A stretch of 64,000 nt of DNA, taken from contig JAYUVP010000304.1 of NCBI GenBank assembly GCA_043753995.1, positions 348-64,347 of the forward strand, written 5' to 3'. Below the pieces are notes generated by a model that was given only the letters and a program-made list of their open reading frames with translations, was not told the origin of the DNA and did not search any database. A program made the position numbers and the translations under genes. Positions 33,663 to 52,634 of this stretch are shown piece by piece (the first letter of the stretch is position 1; every line of letters starts with the position of its first letter). The DNA comes from Fibrobacterota bacterium (GTDB taxonomy: Bacteria > Fibrobacterota > Fibrobacteria > UBA11236).

Positions 33663-33703
33663 TTGACTTTGAGAGGGCGCCGGACTATTATATGTTATAA
33701 CGA
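33663..33703 (+). promoter_or_regulatory. Sigma70 promoter of pirin with a palindrome at the start site
   Basis: TTGACT (33663-33668), 17 bp, TATTAT (33686-33691); GTTATAAC palindrome just downstream. Confidence 0.6.
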
Positions 33704-33733
33704 TTAATGTTTAGACGTTTATGAGGGGGCGGC

Positions 33734-34471
33734 ATGATCACGGTAAGAAAATCAAATGAACGCGGACATTTCGACCATGGTTGGCTGAAAACCTGGCACA
33801 CTTTCAGTTTTTCTGAATATGTGGACCCCGCGCATATGGGATTTCAATCCCTGCGTGTCATCAACGAGGACGTGGTTGCCCCCGGCAAGGGCTTCGGCAC
33901 GCATGGCCATCGCGATATGGAAATCATCACCTATGTGCTTTCGGGATCGCTGGAGCATCGCGACTCGCTAGGCAATGGTGGACTCCTGAAACGCGACACG
34001 GTGCAGCGCATGCGCGCGGGGACGGGCATACGCCATAGCGAAGCCAATCCCGATCCCGAAAAGCCCCTGCATCTGTTTCAAATCTGGATTTTGCCCAAGG
34101 TCAAGAATCTAGCGCCGGCCTATGAAGATCGGTATTTCGATCCCCAGGGCGCGCTGGGCAAGTGGCAATTGCTGGTGTCTCCCGACGGTGCCGAAGGTTC
34201 GCTGGATATTGCACAAGACGCCCATTTCTGGCGGGTATTCTTGCAGGCCGGCGAAGAGGTAGCGCTCCAGTTACCAGAAGGCGAGAGAAATGCCTGGCTG
34301 CAATTGGCCGAAGGCGAGGTCGAGGTCAGCGCGGCGGGTGGGGGAGAGGCAGCGGCGTCCACCGAATCGGCGACGCTAAGTGCGAGCGACGGGACGGCTT
34401 TAAGTCATGTTCGAACCGTGAAGGTCAAGGCCCTGCAAGCCACCGAAGCTTTGTTGTTTGGGTTGGCGTGA
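33734..34471 (+). CDS. Pirin family protein (YhhW-like); intact but probably chimeric (host 5' part plus element-borne 3' part)
   Basis: RGHFDHGWL, HTFSF, LRVINED, HGHRDMEIITYV, HSE and QIW motifs. From codon 62 it aligns to the fragment at 52605. Confidence 0.92.
   Translation: MITVRKSNERGHFDHGWLKTWHTFSFSEYVDPAHMGFQSLRVINEDVVAPGKGFGTHGHRDMEIITYVLSGSLEHRDSLGNGGLLKRDTVQRMRAGTGIRHSEANPDPEKPLHLFQIWILPKVKNLAPAYEDRYFDPQGALGKWQLLVSPDGAEGSLDIAQDAHFWRVFLQAGEEVALQLPEGERNAWLQLAEGEVEVSAAGGGEAAASTESATLSASDGTALSHVRTVKVKALQATEALLFGLA
33917..33946 (+). repeat. attL: 30-bp direct repeat
   Basis: ATGGAAATCATCACCTATGTGCTTTCGGGA, identical to 52605-52634. Confidence 0.9.
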
Positions 34472-34647
34472 AGAATGCGAAGGGTGTTAAGGCTTGTCGT
34501 CTGTAAACCAGGCATCGCGATACGCACCTTTTGGAGGCGGCATTTGCTGTGGCCGGTCCGTGGTAGAAAGGAGTCCGGTCCTCTTATCGATTTCCAAGTG
34601 CGGCCGTCTGCAGACCAAGCGGCAATCGCGCTCGTGCTGTCGGCCAA

Positions 34648-35544
34648 TCAACGCTCTCTCCCACGGGCATCCTTCTCAGATTTAGGGCCGAAACGGCGCA
34701 GAGCCGACTTGATGGTCGAATGGTCCCACGAATTTTTTCGTCTGTGTTTCGACGCTGGTAACTGAAGTGTGGAAGTTGGTTCTTGAATATTCAATAAGTA
34801 AACCATACCTCCCCAGAGATGGTTTAAAAATGTCGAATCCGGTGCCCCGCGGTATGGAGGGGTAATATGGCCCATGGCAGTAGTCCAAGCCTTTCCGCCC
34901 AGGTAGCTGCAAGACCAAGTCATGGGGTGATCAGTTCCAGGCTTGCCTTTGGGAAAGCTCGACTCGTCTACCGTCGTCAGAATTCGCATGCTGGGATTGC
35001 TTGCCGAACGGGGATTAGCTCGAAACCCATAAATCTCATCTATACGGGACCATCGTTTCGGCATACCCTTGGTTGAAGGATCCGTCGAATCCTCAACAAC
35101 TATCGTATGGGTCGTATTGGAATCTCCAGGCAGGCTTTGAAAATAAGCACCGCCGATCAGCTTTCCGTAAAAGACCCAATTCGTTTCCGCATCTAAGGCG
35201 GCATGGATAAATTGAGCGCTTCCACCCTTTTTAAACCAGGATTCAAAGGCATCTTGCTGGGAGTTGTTGAGAAAATCCCCGGTTGTCTTCAAGAAAATCA
35301 CGGACTTATAGTGGGCTAATCCGGTATCTGATATCAAGGCGGCATTTTCCGATGTGTCAACCAGTAAACCCTTGGTTTCGTAAAATTTTTTCAGAGCTGA
35401 TCGAGTGTCGGCAATATTGTTTTCACGAGTTGAGGATGTCTTGGTGAAAATCAAGACCCGATCGGCGGCCAAAGCTACGCCGGAAGCTAGGAGGGTCACA
35501 ATCCACCCGTGGCACCGAAACCGAGGACTCCTGTTTTCCATCAT
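34648..35544 (-). CDS. ThuA-like (class I GAT-fold) secreted protein
   Basis: VLIFTKT, FLKTTGDFLN, DEIYGF, DHPMTW and TAMGH motifs; basic tail ending DARGRER. Confidence 0.82.
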   Translation of the reverse strand: MMENRSPRFRCHGWIVTLLASGVALAADRVLIFTKTSSTRENNIADTRSALKKFYETKGLLVDTSENAALISDTGLAHYKSVIFLKTTGDFLNNSQQDAFESWFKKGGSAQFIHAALDAETNWVFYGKLIGGAYFQSLPGDSNTTHTIVVEDSTDPSTKGMPKRWSRIDEIYGFRANPRSASNPSMRILTTVDESSFPKGKPGTDHPMTWSCSYLGGKAWTTAMGHITPPYRGAPDSTFLNHLWGGMVYLLNIQEPTSTLQLPASKHRRKNSWDHSTIKSALRRFGPKSEKDARGRER

Positions 35545-35553
35545 TTCTCCAAT

Positions 35554-38500
35554 TCAGTTCGGTTCTGGGTCAAAGGATATCTGATAAACCGACGCGGCTT
35601 TTGCCTTGGCCTCATCGGAAAAGCCGACATAGGGAACGCCGGTCGAGCTTATGGCCATTGAAATGTAGGATGCGCCCTTGGTGGTTAGACCGGGTTCTCC
35701 CGCATATTCCCAGGTTAAATGATGCCATCTCATAACGGAGAGGTTGCTGTTAACACCCTCACCAAAGGCAAAATACGGGATTCCATTTTTGTCGATCGCA
35801 ATCGCGTTAGACTGTGCGATGTCGTCTGAAAATCCAGGCTCGCCAACGTATTCCCAGGAGCTTTTCTGAAGGCGCATTACCGTCGCTCTATTGCCGTTTG
35901 CAAAGTCTTGAAATCCCACATAGGGAATGTCTTTGTCATCCGCAGCGATAACGGGCTGACTGATATAACCCGGCGTGAATCCCGCATTACCTAGAACGAC
36001 CCACGATGTGCCATCGAACTTCATTGCCGTGAGTCGGTTCGTTTGTGTCTCGTCTTCAAATAAAACGATGAGGGTACCTGATGGGCTGACGGTGTGCTTT
36101 ACGGCACCGACCTTACCCGGTGAAAAGCCGGGAGGGCCTAGGTCAACCCAATTGGTCCCATTGAATCGCATGGCGGAAGCTTTAGCGGAAGTGTCGCGGT
36201 AGGTCACAATGGGTGAGCCATCTTTTAAGATGCCCAGTTGAAGATCGCCTGCCATACCAGGAGTAAAACCTGGGGAGCCAATCACGGCCCACGTTGAACC
36301 TGTATACTTCATCACAGTAGCCCGAAATTCAAGATCACCATCCAGGTAGGCCACCAAGGGCGAGCCTTGATTGTCGATTTGCAAGGTAGTGCCGAATACT
36401 CGGCCAGAAGAAAACCCAGCTGTGCCCACGAATTGCCACGAGAGACCGTTTAAGCGCATCACGGTCGCTTTCTCCTCGTTCATCGCATCTCGGAATGCAA
36501 CATGGATCACGTTTTCTTTGTTTAAAGAAAGAGACAGATCGTAAACATTAGCGGGGGAAAAGCCGGTATTGCTTACCGGCCCTCGGATCGCGAGGGTTAA
36601 TTCCCGAGAACCTGACGCGGACCAATTCCCCGCAGAATCTCGCTCTTGAACAAAAAGGGTGTGCGGGCCTTCCGAAAGTTGAGGGGAGGCGGTAAAGCGG
36701 GTGGCAATGGTTTCTGCCGCACCGGAGAGATCGGCATTATCCAGCTTGAATCTATAACTCGCAATTCCATCTCCTCCCGAAATCCAGCCCCAAGTTGGAG
36801 TGAGGCTATTCAACGGTGATTTGGGTAAGGCAAACAACATGGGTGTGCCTGGGGGCGTTCGGTCGATCTTAATTGAAGACGCACTGACCTTTGACCAGTT
36901 TCCGGCGGAATCCCGCTCCCGCACATAGAGAACGTGAGCGCCGTCTTTCAGGCCCAATGGCGACACAAATGATTTTGCCTTTGTGGTCGAATCGCTTGAG
37001 GTGAAATCAGGGCTATCCAGTTTGGCCTGGAAAACTCCTAAATCTCCTTGGCCACCAGTGAGCCACGACCATGAGGGTTGGGCGTTATTCGTTAGGCTGC
37101 CGGTGGTGCTTGAAACAAGCGGTGGGTTCGGCGGTGTCGTGTCTATTCGTACGGCCGCAGAACCGCTAGAAGACCAGTTGCCAGCCAAGTCTTTTTCCTG
37201 CACAAAGAGGGTATGGGTTCCGATGCTGAGATCGGTGGCGGCTGTGAATGCCGTGTCCCTGGTTGCGATGGCATCGGAAAAATTTGCTGAGTCGAGCCGA
37301 ATCCTAAACCGGCCGGAACCGCCGCCACTTCCGATCCACTTCCATTTAGGAGTGCGGGTATTCACCGGAGATTCGGCAAATACCATTGGTCTTTCTGGGG
37401 CGGTTGTATCCAATTCAATGGTGATGGTGTCAAAGGCTGTTCGCCCTAAAACCGTTGTATCCACAAAAAGCCTGTTCTTGCCTTCGGATAGCCTGAATGT
37501 TTTTTGTCTCGGCGTTCCATTCACCGTGAATTGCACGGTTACGGGCGTGTAATTGATCAACGTGTCTTGGGTGGGAGATGTGATTTCGATAGTCAAGGGC
37601 GGCGGCGGCTCAATGTCGCCGACTGAAATAAGGACAGCGACTAAATCGGAGTCTTGCCCATCAAATGCACGGAACGTAACTGAACGGTTACCTGTCTGGT
37701 TGCCGCTGGGTGTCCACGAGAATGATTTGCCCAAGAAGGTCGCCCCATCGGGAAGTTCGCGAGCAGTAAAGGAAATTGTGTCGCCGTCGGCGTCGGTTGC
37801 TGCGATTTCGAAAGAAAGAGTTGCACCCGCATTGACCGTCTTGTTTCCTATTTCCGCCAGCTTAGGAGCGCGATTCTGATTTCGGATCGAGATCGAAAGT
37901 GTTTTTTCGACCTGGGTAGTTTCATCCTTGGCCCGAATGACGAGACGGTAAGGGTCCTTGCGGCTTTGGTCAAAGCCCGGTCGCCATGTGATCGTCCCTT
38001 GGCCGGGGCCGGGTTTATCAACCGTGACTATACAGCCCTTAGGCAATTCAGGGTTCCCTGAAATGAAAAGCTTGGGTGTTGTGCCATCGGGATCGGATGT
38101 GCTGATTAGGAGTGTCAGGGAGTCGTTTTCAAAAATTGTCGTGTCGGCGGTAAAGGAAAGAGTCGGCGGCCTGTTCACATTTCCGATGGATAGAATCACG
38201 GTCAGGGAGTCGGAGTCTTTTCCGTCATTGGCGCGAAACTTGATTGGATAGTTTCCTGTCTGTGTGGCATTGGGCGTCCAGTTGAACGCGCCTTGGATGA
38301 AAGTGGCCGTCTGGGGAAGTGTTGTTGTATCTACCGAAACGATAAGCCCGTCCGGGCCATCTGGATCGGTGGCGGTAACCTGGAAGGTAACGGGGCTCTC
38401 CGGTTGCCCCGTCTTGTTTTCAATGGGCGAGAGCTTCGGCGGGCGGTTCACGTTGATCACCTTCACACGGGTGATCTTTTCCACCTTCTGGGTCGCCGAG

Positions 38501-39144
38501 GAATACACGAAGGTTACGGCATAGGGTTCGGCGCGGCCTTGCTCGAAGCCGGGCCGCCAAGTGAAATAGCCATCACCCGCATCGCGACCCGCCGTTTCAA
38601 GCACGGCACCGGAAATGGAATCCTTGAGAGTCAAGGTCGTGCTGCCAGCCCAGGGATTCCGAACGCTAACGCGGAAGTGGAGAATGTCGTCTTCGTTGAT
38701 GGCCGTGTCGGTGGGTGCTTGTATTTCGGGGATGCTTGGTGCGACCACAACCGTTTCCGGCGTGTCTCTCTTGATCGGTAAATCCTTCGATTGAGAGCCG
38801 GATTCAAGAAAGGTCACTTCCTTGTTAACCCCTACTTTTCCATCCTTGTAGCCAATGATTGTGATCGTGTACTCGCGTCCTACCCGAGGATCGAGAGGTA
38901 GCCCCTTGACTTGGTTGGAGTCCCGCAAAATGCCGTGGAAAACCTCCTGCGAGAATTTCCCATCCTTGCTGTGTACGGTCACGATAAGAGAATCGAAGCG
39001 CAAAAGGCTGTCATTACTCTTGTCGATCTGCATGCTTAGCACATGCGCATTTTCCTCCGAGGTCGGACAGGCGACAAGGAAGAGACCGACGACGAGGGAA
39101 AGCCCTAAAAGGATTCGGCTAAGTAGGTTGTGATTCATTCGCAT
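35554..39144 (-). CDS. Large surface lipoprotein with cadherin-like/Ig-like repeats and a C-terminal beta-propeller
   Basis: Lipobox LVAC; three NRxPxL cadherin-like repeats; three DxTxP...GxHxLxVxExDxAGNWS Big-type repeats; repeated GxxGF blades. Confidence 0.75.
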   Translation of the reverse strand: MRMNHNLLSRILLGLSLVVGLFLVACPTSEENAHVLSMQIDKSNDSLLRFDSLIVTVHSKDGKFSQEVFHGILRDSNQVKGLPLDPRVGREYTITIIGYKDGKVGVNKEVTFLESGSQSKDLPIKRDTPETVVVAPSIPEIQAPTDTAINEDDILHFRVSVRNPWAGSTTLTLKDSISGAVLETAGRDAGDGYFTWRPGFEQGRAEPYAVTFVYSSATQKVEKITRVKVINVNRPPKLSPIENKTGQPESPVTFQVTATDPDGPDGLIVSVDTTTLPQTATFIQGAFNWTPNATQTGNYPIKFRANDGKDSDSLTVILSIGNVNRPPTLSFTADTTIFENDSLTLLISTSDPDGTTPKLFISGNPELPKGCIVTVDKPGPGQGTITWRPGFDQSRKDPYRLVIRAKDETTQVEKTLSISIRNQNRAPKLAEIGNKTVNAGATLSFEIAATDADGDTISFTARELPDGATFLGKSFSWTPSGNQTGNRSVTFRAFDGQDSDLVAVLISVGDIEPPPPLTIEITSPTQDTLINYTPVTVQFTVNGTPRQKTFRLSEGKNRLFVDTTVLGRTAFDTITIELDTTAPERPMVFAESPVNTRTPKWKWIGSGGGSGRFRIRLDSANFSDAIATRDTAFTAATDLSIGTHTLFVQEKDLAGNWSSSGSAAVRIDTTPPNPPLVSSTTGSLTNNAQPSWSWLTGGQGDLGVFQAKLDSPDFTSSDSTTKAKSFVSPLGLKDGAHVLYVRERDSAGNWSKVSASSIKIDRTPPGTPMLFALPKSPLNSLTPTWGWISGGDGIASYRFKLDNADLSGAAETIATRFTASPQLSEGPHTLFVQERDSAGNWSASGSRELTLAIRGPVSNTGFSPANVYDLSLSLNKENVIHVAFRDAMNEEKATVMRLNGLSWQFVGTAGFSSGRVFGTTLQIDNQGSPLVAYLDGDLEFRATVMKYTGSTWAVIGSPGFTPGMAGDLQLGILKDGSPIVTYRDTSAKASAMRFNGTNWVDLGPPGFSPGKVGAVKHTVSPSGTLIVLFEDETQTNRLTAMKFDGTSWVVLGNAGFTPGYISQPVIAADDKDIPYVGFQDFANGNRATVMRLQKSSWEYVGEPGFSDDIAQSNAIAIDKNGIPYFAFGEGVNSNLSVMRWHHLTWEYAGEPGLTTKGASYISMAISSTGVPYVGFSDEAKAKAASVYQISFDPEPN

Positions 39145-39743
39145 TAGGGTTTTATCCGGTCATCATGGGTGACGGGTTCGTCGGATTCATTCATCAAGAC
39201 ATACAAGGTGGTTCCGACGGCGGCGCTAAGGCCAATACCACCCGCCGTCCACCAAATCCAATTCGAAGACTTCTTCTTTGTTCCTTTTGCGGTCTTGGTT
39301 CCTGCGGCTGTTTCATTGCCCACGACATCATGGCCCTGAACATATTCCTGGTGCTTCAGGTGGTTTAGTTTCACGCTCTTGAAAATGGCGTCAACATTGT
39401 CGCTAATATAGAGATCGACCAATTCAATGGACGGTTTCAACTTCAAGAGTTGAATCATGTAGCTCTCAGCTTTCAGCCTTGTGGCTGAATCTGAGGCATA
39501 TATCACGCTGAGGTATTTGAAAACGAAGATGCTGTCTTCGCGGGTTTTCGGGGCGAATCTTGCCCGCCATTCCTCCAAGGCAAGCGTTGCTTGCTGGAAA
39601 TCGCCTTCAAAGAATGCGCTGTTGATTGTGTCTCTATCCAGCGATCCATTGGATTTGAACCCGAATTCCGCATTTGCGGCGGGAGCGAGTAGGCAAAAGC
39701 CAACTAGCAGGGCGAGCTTGAAAAATGGGGCCATCAGGGGCAA
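39144..39743 (-). CDS. Hypothetical secreted/membrane protein coupled to the Ig-like gene
   Basis: Signal peptide, helical TPR-like core and C-terminal TM (WIWWTAGGIGLSAAVG). Its stop overlaps the next start. Confidence 0.65.
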   Translation of the reverse strand: MPLMAPFFKLALLVGFCLLAPAANAEFGFKSNGSLDRDTINSAFFEGDFQQATLALEEWRARFAPKTREDSIFVFKYLSVIYASDSATRLKAESYMIQLLKLKPSIELVDLYISDNVDAIFKSVKLNHLKHQEYVQGHDVVGNETAAGTKTAKGTKKKSSNWIWWTAGGIGLSAAVGTTLYVLMNESDEPVTHDDRIKP

Positions 39744-39906
39744 AAGCTACTTTTTCCATGGTTCGCCCTATGGCGGGGAAGCGGCTGGATGGCATTGCGA
39801 ATGCCGGTTACACTTCACCGATTTGAATCGTCCAAGCGCGTACTTTTATGGTTCTAATGTGATTTACTGGCCTTTCAAGTAGACCGATGAACAAAAACAA
39901 ACTTCG

Positions 39907-43106: not shown

Positions 43107-43288
43107 CTCATGCGAAATCTTCTATTCATCCTCTCCCCGTTGCGCGGGGACGGCACCCGGTAGGCGCTTCATTACGTTTGCCGGGTGCCAACAAATTGAA
43201 GCGAACCTAAAGCCGCCTTATCGCCGTGATCAGTCGTTGACTATGTCTTGATGGTTCTGCGTAGAACCCCGTTTTCGTCCGGTGAAGG

Positions 43289-44083: not shown

Positions 44084-44097
44084 TGCCGAGAGTCGCC

Positions 44098-44496
44098 CTA
44101 CCGGGCGGCTTTTTTATTTGCGGGCTTTTTGCTGGGTGCTTTCGCCTCGCGTCTGCCCTGGCCCGTATGAGCCGTATAGCCTTCGATCAGCTTGAGAAAG
44201 GCCCGCTGTTCGTTCGACGGCAGCTTGGCAAAAATTTCCTGTATCCTCGCCATGCGGCTATTGCCGTGAAAGAGCCGATTCGGTTCGGTCTTTAGAGGTT
44301 CACCTATGCCGAGCAATTGATTGGGGGTAACGCCAAGGATCTTGCCGATCTCAATGAGCTTTTGAATCGAAGGGTAAGCTACTCCTTGCTCATAGCGGGT
44401 TATGAGTTGTTGAACCACGCCCAAGGCCTCGGCCATTTGGACTTGGGTTAAGCCCTTGGCTTGCCGTAGCTTGCGAATGTTTGCTCCGAGTTCCAC
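44098..44496 (-). CDS. XRE-family HTH repressor of the element
   Basis: IRKLRQAKGLTQVQMAEALGVVQQLITRYEQG; divergent from the primase operon. Confidence 0.9.
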   Translation of the reverse strand: MELGANIRKLRQAKGLTQVQMAEALGVVQQLITRYEQGVAYPSIQKLIEIGKILGVTPNQLLGIGEPLKTEPNRLFHGNSRMARIQEIFAKLPSNEQRAFLKLIEGYTAHTGQGRREAKAPSKKPANKKAAR

Positions 44497-44535
44497 GAAG
44501 CAAAAGGTAGGGTGGGGTTTCGTGGGGCCTTCCGA

Positions 44536-44556
44536 AATACTATCCTAAGTAGTATT
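44536..44556. promoter_or_regulatory. Inverted-repeat operator between xre and the primase operon
   Basis: AATACTA-N7-TAGTATT in the AT-rich intergenic gap. Confidence 0.55.
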
Positions 44557-44603
44557 ATGATCTATCTTAAAAAACTTACGATCACCCCTTGACACCCCTC
44601 CCG

Positions 44604-44969
44604 ATGAACCCACCCACAGGCACCCCCCAGACCCCCGGCGAGCCCCGCCCCAAGGACGACCTGCTGGTCTTGATTGCCGATCTCCACTTGGGGGCCTTCC
44701 TCATGTGCAAGGGCGTGCCCTTCAAAGGCCTGCAATTCGACGTGCGGGGCCGCGCAACCCTCATGTTCGAGGGCCGCGAAGCCATCCGGCTTCGAGCGGC
44801 CTATCACCAGGATGAAGTCAGCGTTCACCTTCCCAAGTTCAAAGGGGCCTACAACGCCCTGCGTGACTTGCTCTGTGCAAAACCCGAAGATACCCGTAAC
44901 CCCGAAGGTACCCATGCCCATACCCGAAGCCCTCTTGCAGAAGGTCAAGGCCGAAACCAATCTGCTTGA
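44604..44969 (+). CDS. Small hypothetical protein, possibly DUF5659-like DNA-binding protein
   Basis: DLHLGAFLMCKG...LMFEG...YHQDEVSV...YNALRDLL pattern; first gene of the primase operon (ORF from TTG 44589). Confidence 0.5.
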   Translation: MNPPTGTPQTPGEPRPKDDLLVLIADLHLGAFLMCKGVPFKGLQFDVRGRATLMFEGREAIRLRAAYHQDEVSVHLPKFKGAYNALRDLLCAKPEDTRNPEGTHAHTRSPLAEGQGRNQSA

Positions 44970-47643
44970 AATCGCCCGCTCTTTCGGTCTTAGCTTAACC
45001 CCCAAGGGCGATGACCACTTCACCCGCTGCCCCTTCCATCACGACGACACGCCGTCACTCTCGCTCAATGCCAAAAAGGGACTCTTCCATTGCTTCGGCT
45101 GCGGGGCCAAGGGCAATGCCATACAGTTCGTGCAGAAAATGGAAGGGCTGACTTTCCCCGAGGCTTTCAAGAAGGTGGCGGGTAATCGTGCCACACCCGA
45201 AGCCGCCACACTCGTGAGCCCAATGCCCGCAAGTCCCCTAGCCGCATCTGCCTCAAGGCTCATCACCCAAGCCCTCTCCCGCATGCGTCTTTGCCTCGAA
45301 GAAACGCCCAAGGTGCTCGAATACCTCACGCAAACGAGGGGCCTTGCCTTCTTGCTCAACCGGCAAAGCCGTGAGGCTGTCGGCGCGGGCTTTTGCCCCG
45401 AAGATTTCGGCATACGGCTGGATGCCAGGGCCAAGAAAGAATTGACCGCCGCCGGGCTTCTGACGCCCGAAGGCTTTCCGCATTTCGCGGGCTGCGTGGT
45501 CTTTCCGCTTCGCGATGTTAACGGGGAGGTTACCGGCCTTTACGGCCGCAAGATTGCGGGCGACGGCCACTTCTACCAGAAGGGCGAGCGGCGGGGCTTG
45601 TTTGCCTTGCATGGCGGCGGAGGCAGTGACAGCAACGGCAGCAATGGCGGGCTCTTCATCGCCGAATCGGTGATCGATGCGCTCAGCTTGCATCAAATGG
45701 GCGCTTCATCGGTGTTGGCCTTGCATGGTGTTAACGGCTTCACGCCCGCGCATGAGGCTTATATCAAGGCTCGCGCTCAAGATGGCCTTGGCTTATACCT
45801 CGTGCTCGATGGCGACCGGGCGGGCCGTGAAGCCTCGGTCAAACTCGCCGAGCGCATCAAGGCCATGGGACTTTTGGCGCATATCCTCGAAATGCCCGAA
45901 GGAAAAGATCCCAACAGTTTTCTTTTAGCCGCACAAGCCGCCAGCCCACGCACTTTGAAAGACTTGCAGTCCCTTACAGGTTACCCCAAGCCGCACGCGC
46001 CCGCCATAAGCCTGCGCCGCGACGGTGATAGCTTCATCGCCCTTACGCCCCTGCGCCGCTATGTCATCACCGGCCTTACCGCCCATGGTTTCGACCGCCT
46101 CCGGGTCACCCTCAAATGCATTTGCCTCAAGAGCCCCGGCATATTCCATATCGACAGTCTCGATCTCTATGCGGCCCGTGCCCGCGCCTCTTTTGCCGAA
46201 GACGCCGCCGCCGAGTTGAAGCATAAAGAAGCCGACATCGCCGCCGAACTCAAGACCTTAATTCCCTTGCTCGAAGAAGCCCGCTTAAGCCTTGCGAACA
46301 GCACGCAAGAGGCGGCAGTGCCCACCATGAGCGAAGCGGAAAAGGCCGAGGCCTTGGCGGCCTTGAAGTCGCCGACCTTGATAGCCGATCTCATCAAGAA
46401 TTTCGAGGCTATGGGGCTTGTGAGCGATGAGAAAGCCAAGCTCCTCGGCTATCTCGGCACGGTGTCGCGCCTGCTCGAAATGCCCTTGGGCATGCTCATC
46501 ATTTCACGTTCGGGCGCGGGCAAGACGGCTTTGCAAGATGCCATTTGCGCCTTGGTGCCCGGCGAGCACGTGATCAAATACACCCGCCTCACGGGCCAAG
46601 CCCTCTTCTATAAGGAGCGCGACGGACTCAAGTACAAAGTCTTAGCCATCGAAGAAGAAGACGGCATGAGCGCCGCGAAATATTCGATACGCACCCTCGC
46701 CAGCTCGCAGCGGCTCACCGTGGCCACCACCCGAAGCGATCCCAAAACCGGCAAGCTCAAGACCGATGAATACTTGGTCGAAGGCCCGGTCTTCATCCTC
46801 ATCGCCACCACCAACCCCGACGCGCTGGACGCCGAGACGCGCAGCCGCTTCATCATCTTGACCATAGACGAGAGCCCCGAGCAGACGCGGCGCATCATGG
46901 AATCGCGCAAGCTGAGCTACACCTTGGAAGGCAGGCGCAAGCATCGGGCGGGAAGAAAAACGCTGTCGCATTACCACAACATGCAGCGCTTGCTTAAGCC
47001 CATCGAGGTGGTGAACCCTTTTACGCCTTATATCGATTACCCCTTCGACCGCCTGCAAATGCGCCGCGAGTTCGGCAAGTACATGGCCCTCATCAATGCG
47101 ATAACCCTTTTGCATCAGCATCAGCGCGAGGTGAAGCATGATCTTGATGACGGCAGCAATACGCCCTATATCGAAACCACGGTCGAAGACATCGCCTTGG
47201 CCAATGAGCTTGTGCTTGAGTTCTTTCCTAATTCGCTCGATGAATTAGCCCCGCATACCCGCAATCTCGCAGCCGAGGTGATGAAGCTCATCGAGAAGAG
47301 CGGCGGCGACACTCGCTTCACCCGCAAGGCCTTGCGTGACTTCTGCGGCTGGACGGATTGGAGCATACGCCAAGGGTTAGAACAGCTTGTGATCCTTGGT
47401 TATATCATCAAGACCATGGCGCAAAACGGCCTTTGCAATACTTATGAACTGGTGATAGACCCTTGCGGAGAAGACCGCAGCTCACTCTTTCTCACTTCAC
47501 CCGACGAATTGCGCAAACGCCTGGAAGCGGCTAGGGCTGAGGCCAGGACGGCGGGGAAGGTGGCCACTCTATCGCCGAACCTTGTGCCGATGAAAAACGG
47601 CGGCGAGGCGGCTAAAAGAAAAACCACTGGGGGCCGGTCATGA
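44914..47643 (+). CDS. CHC2 zinc-finger/TOPRIM DNA primase fused to a P-loop ATPase (putative primase-helicase)
   Basis: CPFHHDDTPS...CFGC zinc finger; TOPRIM (AESVIDAL, LDGDRAG); Walker A SRSGAGKT; Walker B-like LAIEE. ATG 44914 has a GAAGG RBS. Confidence 0.88.
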   Translation: MPIPEALLQKVKAETNLLEIARSFGLSLTPKGDDHFTRCPFHHDDTPSLSLNAKKGLFHCFGCGAKGNAIQFVQKMEGLTFPEAFKKVAGNRATPEAATLVSPMPASPLAASASRLITQALSRMRLCLEETPKVLEYLTQTRGLAFLLNRQSREAVGAGFCPEDFGIRLDARAKKELTAAGLLTPEGFPHFAGCVVFPLRDVNGEVTGLYGRKIAGDGHFYQKGERRGLFALHGGGGSDSNGSNGGLFIAESVIDALSLHQMGASSVLALHGVNGFTPAHEAYIKARAQDGLGLYLVLDGDRAGREASVKLAERIKAMGLLAHILEMPEGKDPNSFLLAAQAASPRTLKDLQSLTGYPKPHAPAISLRRDGDSFIALTPLRRYVITGLTAHGFDRLRVTLKCICLKSPGIFHIDSLDLYAARARASFAEDAAAELKHKEADIAAELKTLIPLLEEARLSLANSTQEAAVPTMSEAEKAEALAALKSPTLIADLIKNFEAMGLVSDEKAKLLGYLGTVSRLLEMPLGMLIISRSGAGKTALQDAICALVPGEHVIKYTRLTGQALFYKERDGLKYKVLAIEEEDGMSAAKYSIRTLASSQRLTVATTRSDPKTGKLKTDEYLVEGPVFILIATTNPDALDAETRSRFIILTIDESPEQTRRIMESRKLSYTLEGRRKHRAGRKTLSHYHNMQRLLKPIEVVNPFTPYIDYPFDRLQMRREFGKYMALINAITLLHQHQREVKHDLDDGSNTPYIETTVEDIALANELVLEFFPNSLDELAPHTRNLAAEVMKLIEKSGGDTRFTRKALRDFCGWTDWSIRQGLEQLVILGYIIKTMAQNGLCNTYELVIDPCGEDRSSLFLTSPDELRKRLEAARAEARTAGKVATLSPNLVPMKNGGEAAKRKTTGGRS

Positions 47644-47661
47644 CGGCGGCAGGCTTGGCCC

Positions 47662-47767
47662 ACCCTGTGAACCCTGAGGCACCCTGTGAGACCCTGTGTG
47701 AAAAGAAGTCACAGGGTTTAAACCCTTTTGTTTCCGGGCCTTACGGTCGCTTTTACACCACCCTGCG
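47662..47767 (+). repeat. Iteron-like ACCCTG(TG) array downstream of the primase
   Basis: ACCCTG at 47662, 47671, 47681 and 47691; inverted CACAGGGT at 47710-47717; further ACCCTG at 47760. Confidence 0.7.
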
Positions 47768-47817
47768 GGCTTTTCGGTAAAAGGTGGGTGGGGGTGCGAA
47801 AAACGAGGGTAAAGCCG

Positions 47818-48819
47818 ATGCAAAGCGGCATGAATGCGACCCTGCCCCCGGCTTTTACCGGCCTTTCGCTTCGCTTTCGTCTCTGCCTTGAGCGCTATCG
47901 TGAGCACTTGGAGGCCAAGGGTCATTCATCGCATACCGTGCGCAGCTACACCCACACGGCCAAAGACGTACTAGGGTATTTGGCTGGCTTTCATATCGAG
48001 ACCTTACGAGAGGTCTTGCCGCAACACCTGCACGCCTATCAAAACAGCCTCATGGAAACAAGGTCAAGCGGCAAGCCCCGCAGCCTACGCACCGTAACCT
48101 TGCGGTTAACCGAGGTGCGGGCCTTCTTCGCCTACCTGCATGCCCAAGGCGAAATCCTGCTCAACTCGTCTTTAAGCCTGGTCCTGCCCAAGGCGCAAAA
48201 ACGCTTGCCGCGTTTCGTGCCGCCGGTTAACGACATGGCAAGCCTCATCGAAGCGCCGATTTTGGACGGGCCTTTGGGCCTAAGAGATCGGGCCATATTG
48301 GAATTGCTTTACTCATGCGGATTAAGAAGCAGTGAGGCCCGCGCCATGGAGGTCGCCGATCTCGACATGCGGAGCCGGGTTCTCTTCGTGAGAGGCAAGG
48401 GCGGCAAAGATGCCCTGGTGCCTTTCGGCAAGACGGCGGCCAAGGCCTTGGTCAATTACTTGCACCATGGCCGCCCCAAGCTCACTGGCAAAGGCGGTGA
48501 TGCACAGCCTTACCTCTTTCTCAGCAAGAGTGGCCGCAGCATCACTTCACAAAATTTGCTCGACATGGTGCGGCGTCATGCGAAGGCTTTGAACCTGCAA
48601 GGCAATATTTCGCCGCATGGTTTGCGGCATGCGTGCGCCACCCACCTTTTGCAAAACGGCGCCGATATACGGCACATTCAAAAGCTCTTGCGGCATAGCA
48701 GTCTCAACACCACTCAGATTTACACCCGCCTTTGCATCGACGATTTGAAAACAGCGCAAGAGCGCTACCACCCGCGTGAAAAAATCGCTGCAAAAACCGA
48801 TGCCGAAATCAGCGCATGA
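47818..48819 (+). CDS. Tyrosine recombinase 1 (XerC/XerD-like)
   Basis: RDRAILELLYSCGLRSSE, RGKGGK, HGLRH and LLRHSSLNTTQIY give a complete R-K-H-R-H-Y set (ORF from 47728). Confidence 0.93.
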   Translation: MQSGMNATLPPAFTGLSLRFRLCLERYREHLEAKGHSSHTVRSYTHTAKDVLGYLAGFHIETLREVLPQHLHAYQNSLMETRSSGKPRSLRTVTLRLTEVRAFFAYLHAQGEILLNSSLSLVLPKAQKRLPRFVPPVNDMASLIEAPILDGPLGLRDRAILELLYSCGLRSSEARAMEVADLDMRSRVLFVRGKGGKDALVPFGKTAAKALVNYLHHGRPKLTGKGGDAQPYLFLSKSGRSITSQNLLDMVRRHAKALNLQGNISPHGLRHACATHLLQNGADIRHIQKLLRHSSLNTTQIYTRLCIDDLKTAQERYHPREKIAAKTDAEISA

Positions 48820-49831
48820 GAATGCCCGCCTTGGTGAACTCGGCGGTTTTTTAGAAGGCTATCTCTTTTCTTTTAGCCGCGAAAGCCGCCAAGGTTTTTC
48901 GCTTTTGTCGCACCCGTCTTCGTCACAATCGTCTGCTAGGCTATCGCATGCGAAGAGCACGGCTTTGCACCTGCATTACACCTTGGGGCTCTTTCTTAAA
49001 AACATGCGGGCCATGGGCTGCGAAGCGCCGTCAGACATGCAGGCCGAGCACATCACGCGGTATTTCGCGGGCATGCGGAATAGGCGACCCGCCACCTTGG
49101 CTTATCATCGCTGGGCCATACAGGATTTCTTCGCGTGGCTTATTGAGCGGGGTTATTTGCTCATCAGCCCATGGCCGGAAAGTCTTGCACTCAAAACCCC
49201 GCCGCCGTATCCGCGCCTCATTTTACCGCCGCAAGAAATTCTCGGGCGGTTTGCGGCCGTCACGGGGGCCGCTGGTGATGACGATAGGAAGAGCGGCACG
49301 CCGCTGGCCCTAAGAGACCGCGCAATTCTGGAAATCGCCTACGGCCTGGGACTACGCATGAGCGAATTGTGCCGCTTGAATGTGGGCGATATTCGCGGCG
49401 ACCTGCTTTTCGTGCGGGGCAAGTTCGGCAAAGAGCGCATGATGCCGCTAGGGCTTTCGGCGTCTGAGTCACTTGCGCGTTACCTCGCCTTATCTCGCCC
49501 TATACTCAAGGCCCGTCAAAAAGCCGAGACGCAAGCCGCCGGGTATCCGTTGGAATCAAGCGACCCGCTTTTCCTTTCACGCTGCGGAACGCGGCTATTG
49601 CCCGGCGGTTATGAATGGCTCATGAAGCGGTGTCGCAAGGCCATGCCGGGGCGTTTCTCAATGCACGGTTTGCGGCACGCTTTCGCAACCCACATGCTTG
49701 AAGGCGGCGCACCCTTGCCGGTGATACAAGCCTTGCTCGGACACGAGAAAATGGAAACGACCTCACGCTATGCCCATGTAAGCGTGAAAGCGCTTCGAGA
49801 AGTTCTAGACCGGTGCCACCCAAGAGCGTAG
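48776..49831 (+). CDS. Tyrosine recombinase 2 (XerC/XerD-like)
   Basis: RDRAILEIAYGLGLRMSE, RGKFGK, HGLRH and LLGHEKMETTSRY give a complete catalytic set; overlaps the end of recombinase 1. Confidence 0.93.
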   Translation: MKKSLQKPMPKSAHENARLGELGGFLEGYLFSFSRESRQGFSLLSHPSSSQSSARLSHAKSTALHLHYTLGLFLKNMRAMGCEAPSDMQAEHITRYFAGMRNRRPATLAYHRWAIQDFFAWLIERGYLLISPWPESLALKTPPPYPRLILPPQEILGRFAAVTGAAGDDDRKSGTPLALRDRAILEIAYGLGLRMSELCRLNVGDIRGDLLFVRGKFGKERMMPLGLSASESLARYLALSRPILKARQKAETQAAGYPLESSDPLFLSRCGTRLLPGGYEWLMKRCRKAMPGRFSMHGLRHAFATHMLEGGAPLPVIQALLGHEKMETTSRYAHVSVKALREVLDRCHPRA

Positions 49832-50429
49832 GCGACCCGAGCGCGGGAATCATCACGTAAAATTCAGATTGACGCTGAATGCGTATCTGAGGGCGACGGT
49901 TTGCCACCTATTCCGAATATCTGAGCCAATGGTTGATGGGTTTCCGTTGCCCACTGGTTTTTTGAGGGTGAACACATACATACCGCTCAAGTGTTCGCGC
50001 AGATCTACCGCAATGCCAATTTCACCCATGCTGGTTTTGATGTTTTTGACAATTTCATGGATGCATGCCTTGTTTATCGCGATTATATCTGTCGTACACG
50101 TCACCATAAGTAGATCCTTTGTGACTTATCGTTACCATGCTTGCATTATGTTTCGAGCCAATCAAGTTGGCGGGGTCTTTCGCGCCTTTGCGGTGCTGTT
50201 AGGTTTCTCTTTGTCCTGACAGGCCAAGGCTTTGCATTTGATGCGAGGCCACGGCCAAACGGAGTTTGTCCCGCCGCCGCCTCGCTTGACATTCTTTGCG
50301 CCATCGCCTGCCATGGGTTCACATCACCGCAAGCACGCTTTGGCGGCTTTCATCAAATCCGCCAAAGCGTGCGCGTCATTGCCGGCGGGCCGCTCGCCCT
50401 TCCTGTTCGCTTCTGCTTCGAGGCGAGCT

Positions 50430-50506
50430 TTTACATAATGACGTTTACGCAAACCCTGTCGGGTGCGGCCGCACGGCGGCCTTCGCGTAAAGCGGCATTA
50501 TGCAAA
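50430..50506 (+). other. Composite recombination site A: two inverted dif-like sites (6-bp and 7-bp spacers)
   Basis: TTTACATAA-TGACGT-TTACGCAAA (50430-50453) ... TTCGCGTAA-AGCGGCA-TTATGCAAA (50482-50506). The function is inferred. Confidence 0.7.
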
Positions 50507-50616
50507 CCAGCCGGTTCCACATACGCCCGCTAGGGCGGGCTATGCCATGTCGCGGCGCGAAAGCCCCCTTTGCGCACCCCTGGTGGTTAGATTTCATCCA
50601 CTGTCACTCATCAAGG

Positions 50617-51279
50617 ATGAATTCGGATATGCTTCGATTTGGAAAATTTGTCGTGTTCTCAGGAATGATTTGCTTGCTTGCATTATCAGGTTGCAATGAC
50701 CCGAAATCAGCTTCAAAAGAAAATTTCAAAAAGGCTCTTCAAGTCTATTACGATGCCCACCCTTTGATTGTCACTCAAATTTGGCTGACGCTGCCGGTGA
50801 TTGAGGGCAGTTCGGCGTATAAAACGAATGAAGAATTTGTGACGTTTTTCGCCTCGGTCGGCTACTTGGAAGGCCGTGACACGGTTGCCGAAATTGATTC
50901 TGTCGGATATTTGGAAGGACACTTTGCGCGTGTCAATATCAAAATCAAGCGCCCCACAAAAGTTTGGCAATTGACCGAAGAGGGAAAAAAGAATTTCATA
51001 ACCACGTCAAACCCTTTGGTTGGTTCGGTAGGTGGTTTCAGATGGGCCGATGTTCAGGTTAAGGACGTGGAGTCGTTCACCGAACCGGCGGACATGATGG
51101 GCAAGCGTGTAAGCGAGGCAACCTATTCGATCACCCTTGTGAATGAAAAACCTTGGGTCAACCAAATCAAGGGGAAAAGGGGGTTCGCTGCCAACTTTAT
51201 GTACCTCGACCAAATTGGCGCTGCAAGAAAATCGAGTTTGGTTCTGACTTCGGACGGATGGGTTGACGCAAGGCAGTAA
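50617..51279 (+). CDS. Hypothetical lipoprotein
   Basis: Start ATG 50617 or 50629; lipobox LSGC followed by NDPKSASKENFKKAL. Lies between composite sites A and B. Confidence 0.7.
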   Translation: MNSDMLRFGKFVVFSGMICLLALSGCNDPKSASKENFKKALQVYYDAHPLIVTQIWLTLPVIEGSSAYKTNEEFVTFFASVGYLEGRDTVAEIDSVGYLEGHFARVNIKIKRPTKVWQLTEEGKKNFITTSNPLVGSVGGFRWADVQVKDVESFTEPADMMGKRVSEATYSITLVNEKPWVNQIKGKRGFAANFMYLDQIGAARKSSLVLTSDGWVDARQ

Positions 51280-51287
51280 ATCCAGGA

Positions 51288-51912
51288 CTTGGGCGTCCGC
51301 GTAGCGGAAACCCATTTCGGTACTCTTTTCCGCTGCCACCATCATTTTCAAATGGCTTCCCAAGCATTGAAATTCTGTGTTCATCGACCTTGGGCTTCCG
51401 CGCAGCGGAAGACCAAGGCCACAAGCAAGCACTAGGCCGCTACAGCGTGGCGGCGTCTCATGCGCGTGCGGGGTACGGCTCCACACGCGCCAGCCCGCAC
51501 CGCCGCCGTCATATACGGGTTACCCTCTCGTTTGGCCTTCCTCTCCCGCTGTCTCATGACTCGCCCGTGCCTCGACATTTGGTCCTTGCTTGCGACAGGA
51601 CTCGGGGATTAGGCCGCTCGCTTCGCGAGACGTCCTAACCCCCGAGTTCGTCGGAACGCCTCGTAGCATTGTCCACTCTCCAGGGAATAGGGTGGGTGGC
51701 GCGCTAGGCGACCCTAAGCCCCTTGGCGGCTTAATGCCCACAGGGCCGCCAAGGGGATTGCGGCAAGTTTGCATAATCACGACTTAAACGAACCCCGTCA
51801 ACCGGGGTTTGAGTAAGTCGGATTATGTAAAGCCGCCCGCGAAGCGTGCGGCGGACTTGGCGTTGGGTCGCCAGCCCTTGGGGTGCGGGGAGCGCGGAGC
51901 ACACCAAGGGCT
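51288..51912. other. Hairpin-dense non-coding region
   Basis: Stems at 51388-51418, 51600-51647, ~51720-51756 and 51873-51912; a 22-bp direct repeat at 51288 and 51389; no convincing ORF. Confidence 0.65.
51768..51831 (-). other. Composite recombination site B: inverted copy of site A architecture
   Basis: Minus strand reads TTTACATAA-TCCGAC-TTACTCAAA-CCCC...GGGG-TTCGTTTAA-GTCGTGA-TTATGCAAA. Confidence 0.7.
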
Positions 51913-52096
51913 TGACGCAGTATGCGCGGTGCCGTCATGAATGCCAAAGTGGCGGACGGTCGCCGGGCTTGCCCGGCGGTGGTCTGCCACCATGCTAGGC
52001 ACGGCGCAGGATGCGGCAAAGCGCGGGGGGATGGGAGGAGGACAGGGAATCTCCTGGTTATCTTTCGTGTTACCTCGTTATACCCGGAGTCTTTAC

Positions 52097-52549
52097 ATGG
52101 ATTGGCGCAGCGTCATGCGTATTGTCTATGCTGCATCGCTGGCTTTCGTTGGCTTGTTCTTCCTTGCCGTCATGCTGGCGCAAATCGAGGTGGCTAAACA
52201 AATTGCGAAGCTCCCGGTACTCTCATTCAGCATGATGTCCTTGCTTTGGCTATCGCCGGGCGTGTTGGCCGTGCTGTCGGCTTGGCGTCTATGGTCCGCT
52301 AAAGGGGCGGCGCTCGTCTTTTGGGCTTCGGTGAGTCCGGCTTATGTCCTTGCACGCTTTTGGGCGCATCAGCGCCCCGCATGGCTTGGCGGCATGGTTC
52401 ACGGCGAATGGGGGTTGGCTTCGGCCATGAGCGGCGGCCCCGACAAGATGCTGGCGGCAGTGATATGGCTTGCCATGCTCATCCTAGGGCTTGGGGGCTT
52501 ATTCGCCGTTGCCGCCTTCTTTTTCCCTAAAGGCAATCCTAAGCCCTAG
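52097..52549 (+). CDS. Hypothetical integral membrane protein (~4 TM)
   Basis: ATG 52097 with GGAG RBS (ORF from 51941); hydrophobic helices. Confidence 0.6.
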   Translation: MDWRSVMRIVYAASLAFVGLFFLAVMLAQIEVAKQIAKLPVLSFSMMSLLWLSPGVLAVLSAWRLWSAKGAALVFWASVSPAYVLARFWAHQRPAWLGGMVHGEWGLASAMSGGPDKMLAAVIWLAMLILGLGGLFAVAAFFFPKGNPKP

Positions 52550-52595
52550 AGTGGGGGGTCAAAAAAAGAGCCTTATACGATTTTTTGGACCTCTG

Positions 52596-52634
52596 TAGGT
52601 GATAATGGAAATCATCACCTATGTGCTTTCGGGA
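52596..52634 (+). repeat. attR: symmetric tyrosine-recombinase core plus the 30-bp direct repeat
   Basis: TAGGTGATAA-TGGAAA-TCATCACCTA (9/10 inverted arms); 52605-52634 is identical to 33917-33946. Confidence 0.85.

Follow-up and report, generated by a model that had tools for sequence, protein, structure and literature searches.

Several mobile elements integrate within protein-coding genes and mend the gene that they split: e14 and phage 21 in icd of Escherichia coli, as well as many islands, restore the split target with an element-borne gene end. The principle of mending a split gene is not new. Here we report on an 18,688-bp segment of a 64,000-nucleotide stretch of DNA from a Fibrobacterota bacterium (contig JAYUVP010000304.1; the whole stretch is called the window hereafter), which is very probably a site-specific integrative element, probably self-replicating, that splits and repairs a pirin gene. 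Its resemblance to the e14/icd type includes tyrosine-recombinase integration inside a coding gene, an attP (the attachment site of the element) bearing a diverged 3′ end of the target, and a displaced end left as a pseudo-fragment. It likewise has recombinases of its own, identical cores with a restored open reading frame (ORF), and unoccupied attB sites (the chromosomal attachment sites) in relatives. In contrast to e14/icd, with one lambda-type Int plus Xis, the element has two tandem Xer-like recombinases together with a primase/NTPase, and it is not a prophage. The replaced segment is also far longer, comprising 184 of the 245 pirin codons here and about 171 codons in sister elements that target a Hydantoinase_B gene.

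A pirin family gene has served as a chromosomal attachment site before. The attB of phiC31 lies in the Streptomyces pirin homologue SCO3798, where integration by a serine integrase inactivates the gene (PMC5937489, PMC7890619), and thus pirin is not an unprecedented target, although an earlier note on this DNA knew of no described element that uses it (PMC5937489). The likeness ends there, because phiC31 is a temperate phage with a large serine integrase that inactivates pirin and repairs nothing. Full-text literature searches returned no description of this element family or of a pirin-repairing element. The family is apparently undescribed, and what appears to be new is the family itself, the architecture of two recombinases with a primase, the very long replacement segments, and the switching of targets.

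The earlier note, which was made from the sequence alone, had described an intact pirin gene, a second copy of only its 3′ part further downstream, and an exact 30-bp repeat at both junctions that gives way to divergence with synonymous changes and a small indel. It had concluded that an integrative element with its attB in pirin supplies about 185 replacement codons. ORF and Pfam analyses agree with this layout; the phenomenon is real and the earlier reading of it was right, with the replacement segment amounting to 184 codons. The features of the two junctions, attL on the left and attR on the right, are as follows.

33734-34471, plus strand: intact pirin ORF of 245 aa that matches Pfam Pirin and Pirin_C_2 over their full length
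33734-33916, plus strand: first 61 codons of pirin, supplied by the host and ending with the HGHRD metal-binding motif, on a 7.3x unitig together with the host flank
33917-33946, plus strand: attL core, the exact 30-mer repeat ATGGAAATCATCACCTATGTGCTTTCGGGA
33917-34471, plus strand: element-borne pirin 3′ replacement segment, 184 codons and a stop, giving an intact 245-aa pirin with the host 5′ part
52553-52604, plus strand: conserved right end of the element, with a G-run, an A/T-run inverted repeat (GGTCAAAAAAA...TTTTTTGGACC) and the element-side core arm AGGTGATA
52595-52622, plus strand: dif-like core as in attP/attR, GTAGGTGATAA / TGGAAA / TCATCACCTAT, with 9-bp arms that are 8/9 symmetric (9-6-9, 11-6-11)
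52605-52634, plus strand: attR core, second exact copy of the 30-mer ATGGAAATCATCACCTATGTGCTTTCGGGA; the 18,521-nt element unitig stops exactly at 52634
52605-53144, plus strand: displaced original host pirin 3′ part, 179 codons with the frame still open, contiguous with the host right flank and, at 8.8-9.8x, of the same depth as the host

The spacing of the two 30-mer copies, 18,688 bp, is taken as the length of the element. Taken from a GTG at 52599, the ORF of the 3′-only copy matches Pfam Pirin positions 51-108 plus Pirin_C_2. Past the 30-mer, identity between the two copies is 88% for 300 nt and falls to about 70% thereafter, with a single 15-nt indel. Their differences are mostly synonymous (dS 0.75, dN 0.116, dN/dS 0.155, where dS and dN are the synonymous and nonsynonymous divergence), and 149 of 184 residues are identical. 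An in-frame coding repeat of 540 nt is far in excess of what a chance origin would give. The left copy, the right copy and the pirin of the related contig L090, described below, are pairwise equidistant (dS 0.72-0.75), which argues that the element segment was captured from the pirin of a related lineage and is no duplicate of this host’s gene. The divergence between the copies thus reflects different lineages of origin rather than the age of the insertion. Private amino-acid changes number seven in the displaced copy versus two in the left copy, a difference that is not significant (p=0.18). Derived states common to both copies stand at 20:15 in the core-proximal 210 nt versus 29:75 in the distal part (Fisher p=0.004), which suggests that the element and host copies have exchanged sequence near the core in the past.

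The host genes on either side of the element are as follows.

33167-33646, plus strand: MarR-family regulator (Pfam MarR), syntenic with the MarR gene beside uninterrupted pirin in L090 and L092-L094
53155-53496, minus strand: Phage_holin_4_2/YvlD-type membrane protein (Pfam); the same gene follows the single pirin in L090
53527-54072, minus strand: hemerythrin-domain protein (Pfam); the same gene follows the single pirin in L090

The earlier note had proposed a search of related genomes for an empty site, in the form of a single pirin beside what it called the YvlD holin gene. The neighbor is present as described, although the word ‘holin’ reflects a membrane-protein match to Pfam Phage_holin_4_2 only. 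L090, a 33.7-kb contig reached through an 80% pirin match (P0122), carries in order MarR, a single 243-aa pirin, YvlD (minus strand) and hemerythrin (minus strand). It aligns to 32375-34465 of the window and, from the same pirin position (L090 base 1564), to 52605-54050, continuing on to 54323-58481, all at 78-82% identity. The host-encoded 5′ part matches L090 at 150 of 183 nt, and the L090 attB matches the core at 29 of 30 bases. A second relative, L091, has the same pirin-YvlD adjacency within the same order (MarR, single 243-aa pirin, YvlD and hemerythrin, the latter two on the minus strand), and so unoccupied attB sites exist in both genomes. L092-L094, whose pirins match at 72%, share left-hand synteny with the window. 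Relatives without the recombinases might instead have carried both pirin copies, an outcome that the earlier note had named as evidence against its reading; L090 has one pirin and no island.

Searches directed at the host itself returned less. A pirin search of 185,579 species-representative genomes gave a best match of 54% identity, and hence no close host genome and no empty site, and an exact look-up of the YvlD protein produced no record. With the uninterrupted pirin (the 61 host codons plus the right-hand fragment) as the query, no protein at 90% identity or above was retrieved and no same-strain empty site was found; the 80% match on L090 came from this search. Metagenome runs X3-X5 and X13, which had weak matches to the host flank, held low-depth element fragments only and no attB contig.

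Evidence on the physical state of the element comes from two sediment metagenome runs of one study (X1 and X2, one of which is SRR23617192) in which the window is matched at 100% identity. These data are k=31 unitigs, which are broken at every junction, and about 45% of the contigs of each run were read; the window itself is part of a 79-kb contig that runs through both junctions. An element unitig of 18,521 nt (34114-52634), free of single-nucleotide polymorphisms (SNPs), has a depth of 15.4x in X1 and 14.7x in X2, and long host unitigs of more than 25 kb on both sides have depths of 6.5-9.1x. There are thus about 1.9 element copies per host chromosome in both samples. Of the two pirin copies, the left one has a specific unitig of 118 nt with a depth of 18.9x, and the corresponding unitig of the right one reaches 9.4-9.8x. 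From these depths it follows that the left 3′ copy is part of the element and the right one part of the chromosome, which is the assignment that the earlier note had made. Circles, a tandem array or residence in a second host could each account for the extra copies, and every one of these options would imply recent mobility. For an excised circle of the window’s element, what was observed is this excess depth of about 1.9x, and closed circles were observed for the sister Hydantoinase_B elements. Assemblies break at 33890-33946 because this stretch of pirin, which encodes HGHRDMEIITYV, is shared at k=31 by many members of the community (unitigs of 30-130x). A pirin stretch so strongly conserved at the site would open a wide range of possible hosts to the element.

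Wastewater and sludge runs from other studies also contain fragments or close relatives of the element and lack the host flank. An element relative of about 93% identity in wastewater runs X7-X10, from another study, covers 38981-52881, including the right junction and the pirin fragment. It lacks the host flank as well as 34067-38900 (the ThuA-like gene and most of the Ig-like gene described below), and it shows local replacements that skip 41891-42006, 42772-43044 and 49832-50169. The ThuA/Ig-like region (34581-37591) is found in short, low-depth contigs of 98-100% identity in X4, X5 and X13, which are sludge, wastewater and freshwater runs of unrelated studies. In these three runs the host flank leaves at most a weak trace, a single 200-nt contig of about 93% identity in X4.

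The earlier note had also suggested a survey for split pirins flanking tandem recombinases. A pirin fragment that begins at the same codon, M62, ends four divergent elements (L084, from an NCBI metagenome-assembled genome (MAG), and L095, L175 and L176), whose recombinase A proteins are about 51-54% identical to that of the window. L175 and L176 are contigs of whole elements, each beginning inside the pirin fragment and ending with the right end and core. All four have the same tandem recombinases and primase. The family is not confined to pirin: elements L081-L083 and L086-L089 carry a Hydantoinase_B fragment of about 165-171 codons at the same position. Where a metagenome bin of these lineages, which are probably Fibrobacteria, contains a pirin or hydantoinase gene that is split or duplicated, it should be read as an element junction and not as a pseudogene or misassembly.

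The Hydantoinase_B elements reveal the attachment sites in all of their states.

attL (L087): host ...CAGGGGACGA / TGAACAA / TATCACG... (element fragment)
attP (L088, L089 and the start of L086): ...AGGTGATAT / TGAACAA / TATCACG...
attR (L086 and L087): ...AGGTGATAT / TGAACAA / CGTCACC... (host fragment)

The sole sequence common to these three sites is the 7-bp TGAACAA, which is typical of the overlap of a tyrosine recombinase. L087 holds attL and attR on one contig. L088 (12,080 nt) and L089 (12,137 nt), which come from separate assemblies, are circular permutations of a 12,082-bp unit that break at different points and have the closed junction internal, which is what circular molecules would be expected to give. 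In this sister family, the copies beside attL and in the closed attP form do not differ. L081 and L082 have the same element end and diverge immediately after TTGAACAA. By analogy, strand exchange in pirin would take place within TGGAAAT (33918-33924 and 52606-52612).

The core is a dyad in each of the elements compared below, given as left arm, center, right arm and the number of symmetric positions.

Window: AGGTGATAA / TGGAAA / TCATCACCT, 8/9
L086 attP: AGGTGATAT / TGAACA / ATATCACGT, 8/9
L081: AGGTGACAT / TGAACA / ACGTCACGT, 7/9
L084: AGGTGAGTA / TGGAAA / TACTGTCCT, 7/9
L095 and L175: AGTACAGTA / TGGAAA / TACTGTCCT, 8/9

The background rate of such dyads in the window is 1.25e-4 per position for at least 8/9 symmetry and 1.8e-3 for at least 7/9, and the junction dyads are found in six elements, that of the window and five others in the same register. 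Changes in the gene-side arm are matched by changes in the element-side arm (GTGAT/ATCAC, GTGAC/GTCAC, ACAGT/ACTGT), from which two inverted binding sites are predicted and the idea of a ribosome-binding site is ruled out. Specifically, AGGTGA had been considered as a Shine-Dalgarno sequence, or as an in-frame GTG start for the fragment, and was rejected because L095 and L175 have AGTACAGT at this place, where the arm mirrors the gene-side arm. The right end, about 50 bp 5′ of the core, is kept in L081, L084, L086, L095, L175 and L176 despite protein identities of about 50%, with the family motif GGGGTCRAAAAAAGGCCYTATAGGAAA. Its G-run and A/T inverted repeat may provide accessory binding.

The mechanism that we consider very probable is the following. 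The attachment site would lie inside pirin, three codons past the HxH metal-binding motif, and attP would consist of the conserved right end of about 50 bp, the dif-like core (inverted arms of 9-11 bp around a 6-7-bp overlap, TGGAAA(T)) and the last 184 pirin codons. Strand exchange by the two Xer-like tyrosine recombinases would join attP with the pirin gene of the chromosome within TGGAAAT, whereupon host codons 1-61 would be joined in frame to element codons 62-245 and pirin would remain intact at attL. The host’s own 3′ part would be pushed 18.7 kb downstream to become a promoterless fragment at attR, and the XRE regulator and primase/NTPase would control and replicate the excised circle. 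The data demonstrate the repeat structure, the empty site of a relative, the recurrence of the junction in four other elements, the three site states with their 7-bp core in the sister elements, the dyad with its co-varying arms, and the excess copy number. That the two recombinases act together as an Xer-like heteromer, that the extra copies are circles, that the primase replicates these copies, and how the element moves between cells are all matters that we infer. If this mechanism is correct, each integration could exchange three quarters of the gene for foreign sequence, so that a mobile element in effect drives allele replacement, either of pirin or of a subunit of a hydantoinase/oxoprolinase.

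Between the two junctions, the element carries the following genes.

34648-35544, minus strand: ThuA-like protein (Pfam), cargo or accessory
35554-39144, minus strand: immunoglobulin-like (Ig-like) surface protein of 1196 aa (Pfam), cargo or accessory
39144-39743, minus strand: 199-aa protein, cargo or accessory
39907-42354, plus strand: 815-aa protein, cargo or accessory
42351-43106, plus strand: MORN-repeat protein (Pfam), cargo or accessory
43289-44083, minus strand: 264-aa protein, cargo or accessory
44098-44496, minus strand: XRE/Cro-type helix-turn-helix (HTH) regulator (Pfam HTH_3), divergent from the replication/recombination operon
44589-44969, plus strand: small conserved ORF with no family matches; its counterparts 5′ of the primase in L081, L084, L086 and L088 share 45-46% identity with it, and its length in relatives is about 113 aa
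44674-47643, plus strand: DnaG-type primase (zf-CHC2 and Toprim) with a fused C-terminal P-loop NTPase region (Pfam; NCBIfam dnaG domain; PHROG primase families); its true start is probably near 44914
47728-48819, plus strand: tyrosine recombinase A, Xer-like (Pfam Phage_integrase and SAM_1), a 363-aa ORF with a probable start at M31, position 47818 (about 333 aa)
48776-49831, plus strand: tyrosine recombinase B, Xer-like, 351 aa (Pfam), overlapping A and a paralogue 32% identical to it
50430-52549, plus strand: right-hand element-specific genes, namely a 259-aa protein (50500-51279) and a 202-aa membrane protein (51941-52549), ORFs with no family matches

The recombinases and primase that the earlier note had placed between the pirin copies are thus two tyrosine recombinases and a zf-CHC2/Toprim primase, and two element-encoded Xer-like recombinases combined with a dif-like core and a DnaG-type primase/NTPase make an unusual toolkit. 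Both recombinases keep all of the catalytic residues, R-K-H-R-H-Y. In full-length alignments to the NCBIfam XerC/XerD models (TIGR02224/TIGR02225), recombinase A scores 240 bits and recombinase B scores 160 bits versus cut-offs of 335 and 330. Because these scores are far below the equivalog cut-offs, the two proteins are Xer-like in fold and length but are not XerC/XerD orthologues or a housekeeping pair. The primase/NTPase has a GAGKT motif and a Walker-B-like VLAIEE motif and is 57-61% identical across the family, and its matches to phage proteins span only the N-terminal 38% or so at less than 30% identity. The best NCBIfam match of the XRE regulator is the RstR-family repressor (CTXphi), below the cut-off, and the position of this gene is kept in all family loci.

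The nearest relatives of recombinase A beyond its own 90% cluster are 49-54% identical, and they define a module of fixed order: the XRE regulator (minus strand), the ORF of about 113 aa, a primase/NTPase of 866-918 aa, usually an ORF of about 70 aa, recombinase A of about 330 aa and recombinase B of about 290 aa. The recombinase tandem is kept in all close relatives (recombinases of about 290-334 aa), and catalytic R, K, H, R, H and Y are kept in both proteins throughout, the one departure being two B proteins in which Q replaces the first H. Across the family loci, no ORF between the recombinases or directly 3′ of them is conserved. The ORF of about 70 aa 5′ of recombinase A had been a candidate for a conserved directionality factor and was dismissed, as it is present in relatives and missing from the window. 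Cargo is variable. The Ig-like and 199-aa proteins are present again in L081, L084, L177 and L178 as part of a set that includes a peptidoglycan-binding protein, and elsewhere the cargo comprises restriction-modification, RadC, lipase or carbohydrate-binding module (CBM) proteins.

The combination of two Xer-like recombinases and a core resembling dif invites comparison with elements that depend on host XerC/XerD. The IMEX class (CTXphi, TLCphi) exploits host XerC/XerD at dif and has no recombinase of its own (PMC5357621, PMC9226527). The element resembles the XerC/XerD-dif system in its two side-by-side Xer-like paralogues and in the core, with inverted arms around a 6-7-bp center and inner bases like those of dif (ATAA-N6-TnAT). 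Unlike IMEX, however, it encodes two recombinases and integrates in pirin and not at dif. Tn554, SE, GInt and RIT elements have one ordinary and one large recombinase with TnpC/Srap (and Tfp), or three recombinases, together with terminal inverted repeats and 6-bp footprints, and they do not restore their targets (PMC10214605). They share with the element tandem tyrosine recombinases, site specificity and the lack of conjugation genes, and with its sister elements circular forms (PMC10214605). The element has neither a recombinase of more than 600 aa nor three recombinases with the accessory genes; it is set apart, by comparison with their published description (PMC10214605), in having two ordinary-sized recombinases (about 290-335 aa), a primase and a gene-replacement segment.

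Tycheposons use one lineage-specific tyrosine recombinase and partial tRNA att sites (bioRxiv 10.1101/2020.12.28.424599). Together with P4 and the phage-inducible chromosomal islands (PICI), they resemble the element in combining a tyrosine recombinase, a small primase/helicase module, a regulator and variable cargo with an att site that holds a partial copy of the target. The element is not of the Tycheposon type, as it has two recombinases and protein-coding targets, there are no tRNA genes in the window, and capsid-interference or packaging genes are missing. Pfam families of relaxases, type IV secretion and coupling proteins had no match among the element proteins, which separates it from integrative conjugative and integrative mobilizable elements, while several ORFs have no annotation and a novel mobilisation function is therefore possible. 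Capsid, terminase, portal, helper-interference and packaging-redirection genes were likewise not found with PHROG or Pfam, as would be expected of neither a prophage nor a satellite. The PHROG scan matched primase families and, weakly, one family of unknown function in the Ig domain, and nothing else.

Some observations weigh against the proposal that the window carries an integrative element that repairs pirin. The empty site comes from a related species (about 80% identity) and not from the same strain. No read or contig crossing attP or attB of the window’s own element was obtained, the data being k=31 unitigs, which cannot cross a 30-nt repeat. A 42-nt unitig of ‘host-left + core’ sequence has a depth of 19.5x, which means that other community pirins share it and that the flow through the junctions cannot be balanced. 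We had reasoned that the attP junction must carry at least 6x, and this inference was withdrawn because it is confounded by the community pirins and by the fraction of contigs read. The host-side left arm of the pirin attB is not symmetric (2/9); the host-side arm of the Hydantoinase_B attB, read by hand from the site sequences, is at 7/9. In addition, no excisionase-like gene was identified in the element, and Pfam and PHROG scans of the element proteins, several of which have no annotation, gave no transfer, capsid or relaxase genes.

Given these points, the contig might be a chimera, in which case the host pirin would be uninterrupted, the element would be a free circular replicon of about two copies per cell whose attP carries the left copy, and the assembler would have joined the two via shared k-mers including the 30-mer. 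The depths fit this arrangement equally well (element about 15x, host about 7.5x, core+G 8.8x), and the independent k=31 unitigs break at every junction and offer no junction-spanning data. We nevertheless consider it quite improbable. The 79-kb contig passes both junctions, and sister elements are truly integrated, with attL and attR in L087 and host genes past attR in L081, L083 and L086. Moreover, the near-constant ratio of about 1.9 in two samples suggests a fixed stoichiometry and not a free copy number. Even a chimera would leave a pirin-targeting integrative element, and its state in the sample alone would change. Slightly less credible still is a fixed, immobile island, the product of an old integration with dead recombination, whose excess depth stems from a second, unrelated genome. 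The pirin copies are indeed old relative to each other (dS 0.75), no excisionase was found, and a second host is compatible with the depth data. The copies, however, diverge through their different lineages of origin, as the three-way equidistance with L090 indicates, and not because the insertion is old. The catalytic residues are all present in both recombinases and the 30-mer cores are identical; a second context for a single SNP-free 18.5-kb unitig at twofold depth would imply very recent movement; sister elements form closed circles; and unrelated studies contain fragments 98-100% identical to the window’s element. A segmental duplication of the pirin 3′ half, followed by insertion of an unrelated island by some other route without site-specific targeting, would formally yield the same structure, a direct repeat flanking foreign DNA. 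We give this practically no credence, since the copies do not stem from a recent duplication (dS 0.75, with L090 equidistant), the core is a dyad with co-varying arms, and the relative with the empty site has one copy. That four divergent elements end at the identical codon effectively refutes it.

A further alternative concerns the nature of the element and not its mechanism of integration. The element could be a cryptic virus-like element or a phage satellite whose transfer requires a helper, with the Ig-like and peptidoglycan-binding proteins as parts of a particle or of an adsorption apparatus. P4-like elements and PICI have modules resembling its combination of XRE regulator, primase/NTPase and integrase(s), the Ig-like and 199-aa proteins occur in several relatives, and there is the one weak PHROG match in the Ig domain. 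We regard this possibility as unlikely, because capsid, terminase, portal and packaging-redirection genes are missing and IMG/VR holds no relatives of the element. Furthermore, the pair of genes for the 199-aa and Ig-like proteins also occurs as an ordinary cassette on the chromosome of a Fibrobacteria MAG and is missing from members that have restriction-modification genes instead. A site-specific integrative element that splits and repairs pirin remains the reading that we prefer.

The existence of two targets raises the question of how the family acquires them. The pirin and Hydantoinase_B cores are alike ([A/T]TG[G/A]A[A/C]A..ATCAC[C/G]T), and this likeness may account for the family’s move from one gene to another. 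Co-variation extends across the targets, with cores of TGGAAA-TCATCACCT versus TGAACA-ATATCACGT. We tentatively put forward, as a possibility that we hold to be less likely than its opposite, that the family consists of self-replicating elements whose recombinase pair is retargetable to further protein-coding genes, an element capturing a long 3′ gene segment with a (T)ATCACNT-like half-site and then evolving its terminal arm to mirror it. In any case, the arm co-variation constitutes a natural experiment in target acquisition by tyrosine recombinases, of relevance to engineered site-specific integration. The fate of displaced segments is also instructive. The displaced Hydantoinase_B fragment at the L086 attR (12083-12330) has 68 codons, about 100 fewer than the 171 of the element, and its HTHMTNT motif is gone, so that excision in the L086 host would leave a broken Hydantoinase_B gene. 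On the same tentative view, displaced segments can decay, as with this deletion of about 100 codons, and the host may come to depend on the element’s copy, which would be a form of addiction by gene replacement.

Several other sequence features of the window and its relatives deserve mention. The G+C content (0.544 versus 0.537) does not set the element apart by composition. No tRNA genes or Rfam features were detected in the window, and PADLOC found no defense-system match among the element proteins. The 259-aa ORF is bracketed by imperfect inverted repeats at 50430-50513 and 51761-51831, each arm of which has a TTTRCATAAT motif. The repeats form two nested pairs (37 nt at 73% and 27 nt at 78%), and they contain four of the five near-matches to TTTRCATAAT in the whole window. 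They could mark a nested small insertion or an invertible segment, or could serve as binding sites of the regulator, iteron or arm type. Iteron-like repeats lie just 5′ of the conserved right end in L084 (about 14440-14680), L081 (about 14560-14620) and L176 (about 13790-13860), and none are present at that place in the window, L095, L175 or L086. In L084, they comprise four tandem CACTTTCATACATCCG units and several TGTACAAA/TTTGTACA motifs. Candidate functions of these repeats are those of an origin or of accessory sites for the recombinases. Outside the element, X1 and X2 both contain a contig at about 40x, five times the host depth, that joins 21164 to 32909 and skips 11,744 bp; its shorter side is 21 nt, and the join is probably a short conserved motif common to an abundant unrelated organism.

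Restriction-modification cargo lies between recombinase B and the right end in L086 (9495-11772), L175 (11643-13890) and L178 (9747-12184). The cassettes are complete and consist of Vsr, a C5 methylase and an Eco29kI-type endonuclease, or of an Eco57I-type methylase and a BsuBI/PstI-type endonuclease. A metagenome scan with the recombinase A alignment relied on generic patterns, and ordinary Xer-like genes made up 79 of its 80 loci; L095 was the only close member recovered, besides which there were three distant primase-bearing loci. The left 7.5 kb of the L084 contig was sought via homologues of the 199-aa protein, and the L084 protein was absent among the matches listed.

Full-length relatives of the primase fusion (34-38% identity over about 90% of the length) occur in megaplasmids of Ralstonia, Caballeronia and Janthinobacterium. 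The islands in question, which bear generic annotation, resemble the element in the order of HTH regulator (minus strand), primase/NTPase fusion, small ORF and Xer-like recombinase, but differ in having a single recombinase and Proteobacterial hosts. In L181 (Ralstonia solanacearum Po82 megaplasmid, 145611-172352, with the relative at about 157.6-161.7 kb) and L182 (a plasmid of Janthinobacterium lividum HAMBI_1919), the HTH regulator, toprim primase/NTPase, small ORF and one Xer-like recombinase have toxin-antitoxin and immunity genes among their neighbors. Because Ralstonia and Janthinobacterium are cultured, these single-recombinase relatives make the biochemistry testable. Finally, L180, from a Fibrobacteria MAG (GCA_035275285.1, DATENA010000132.1), has the 199-aa and large Ig-like genes as a two-gene cassette (10001-13776) beside a Ser/Thr kinase gene, in what is apparently ordinary chromosome. 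The 199-aa family has more than 100 homologues, and the named ones are all from Fibrobacteria MAGs, a distribution that weakly suggests Fibrobacteria as the hosts of the element family.

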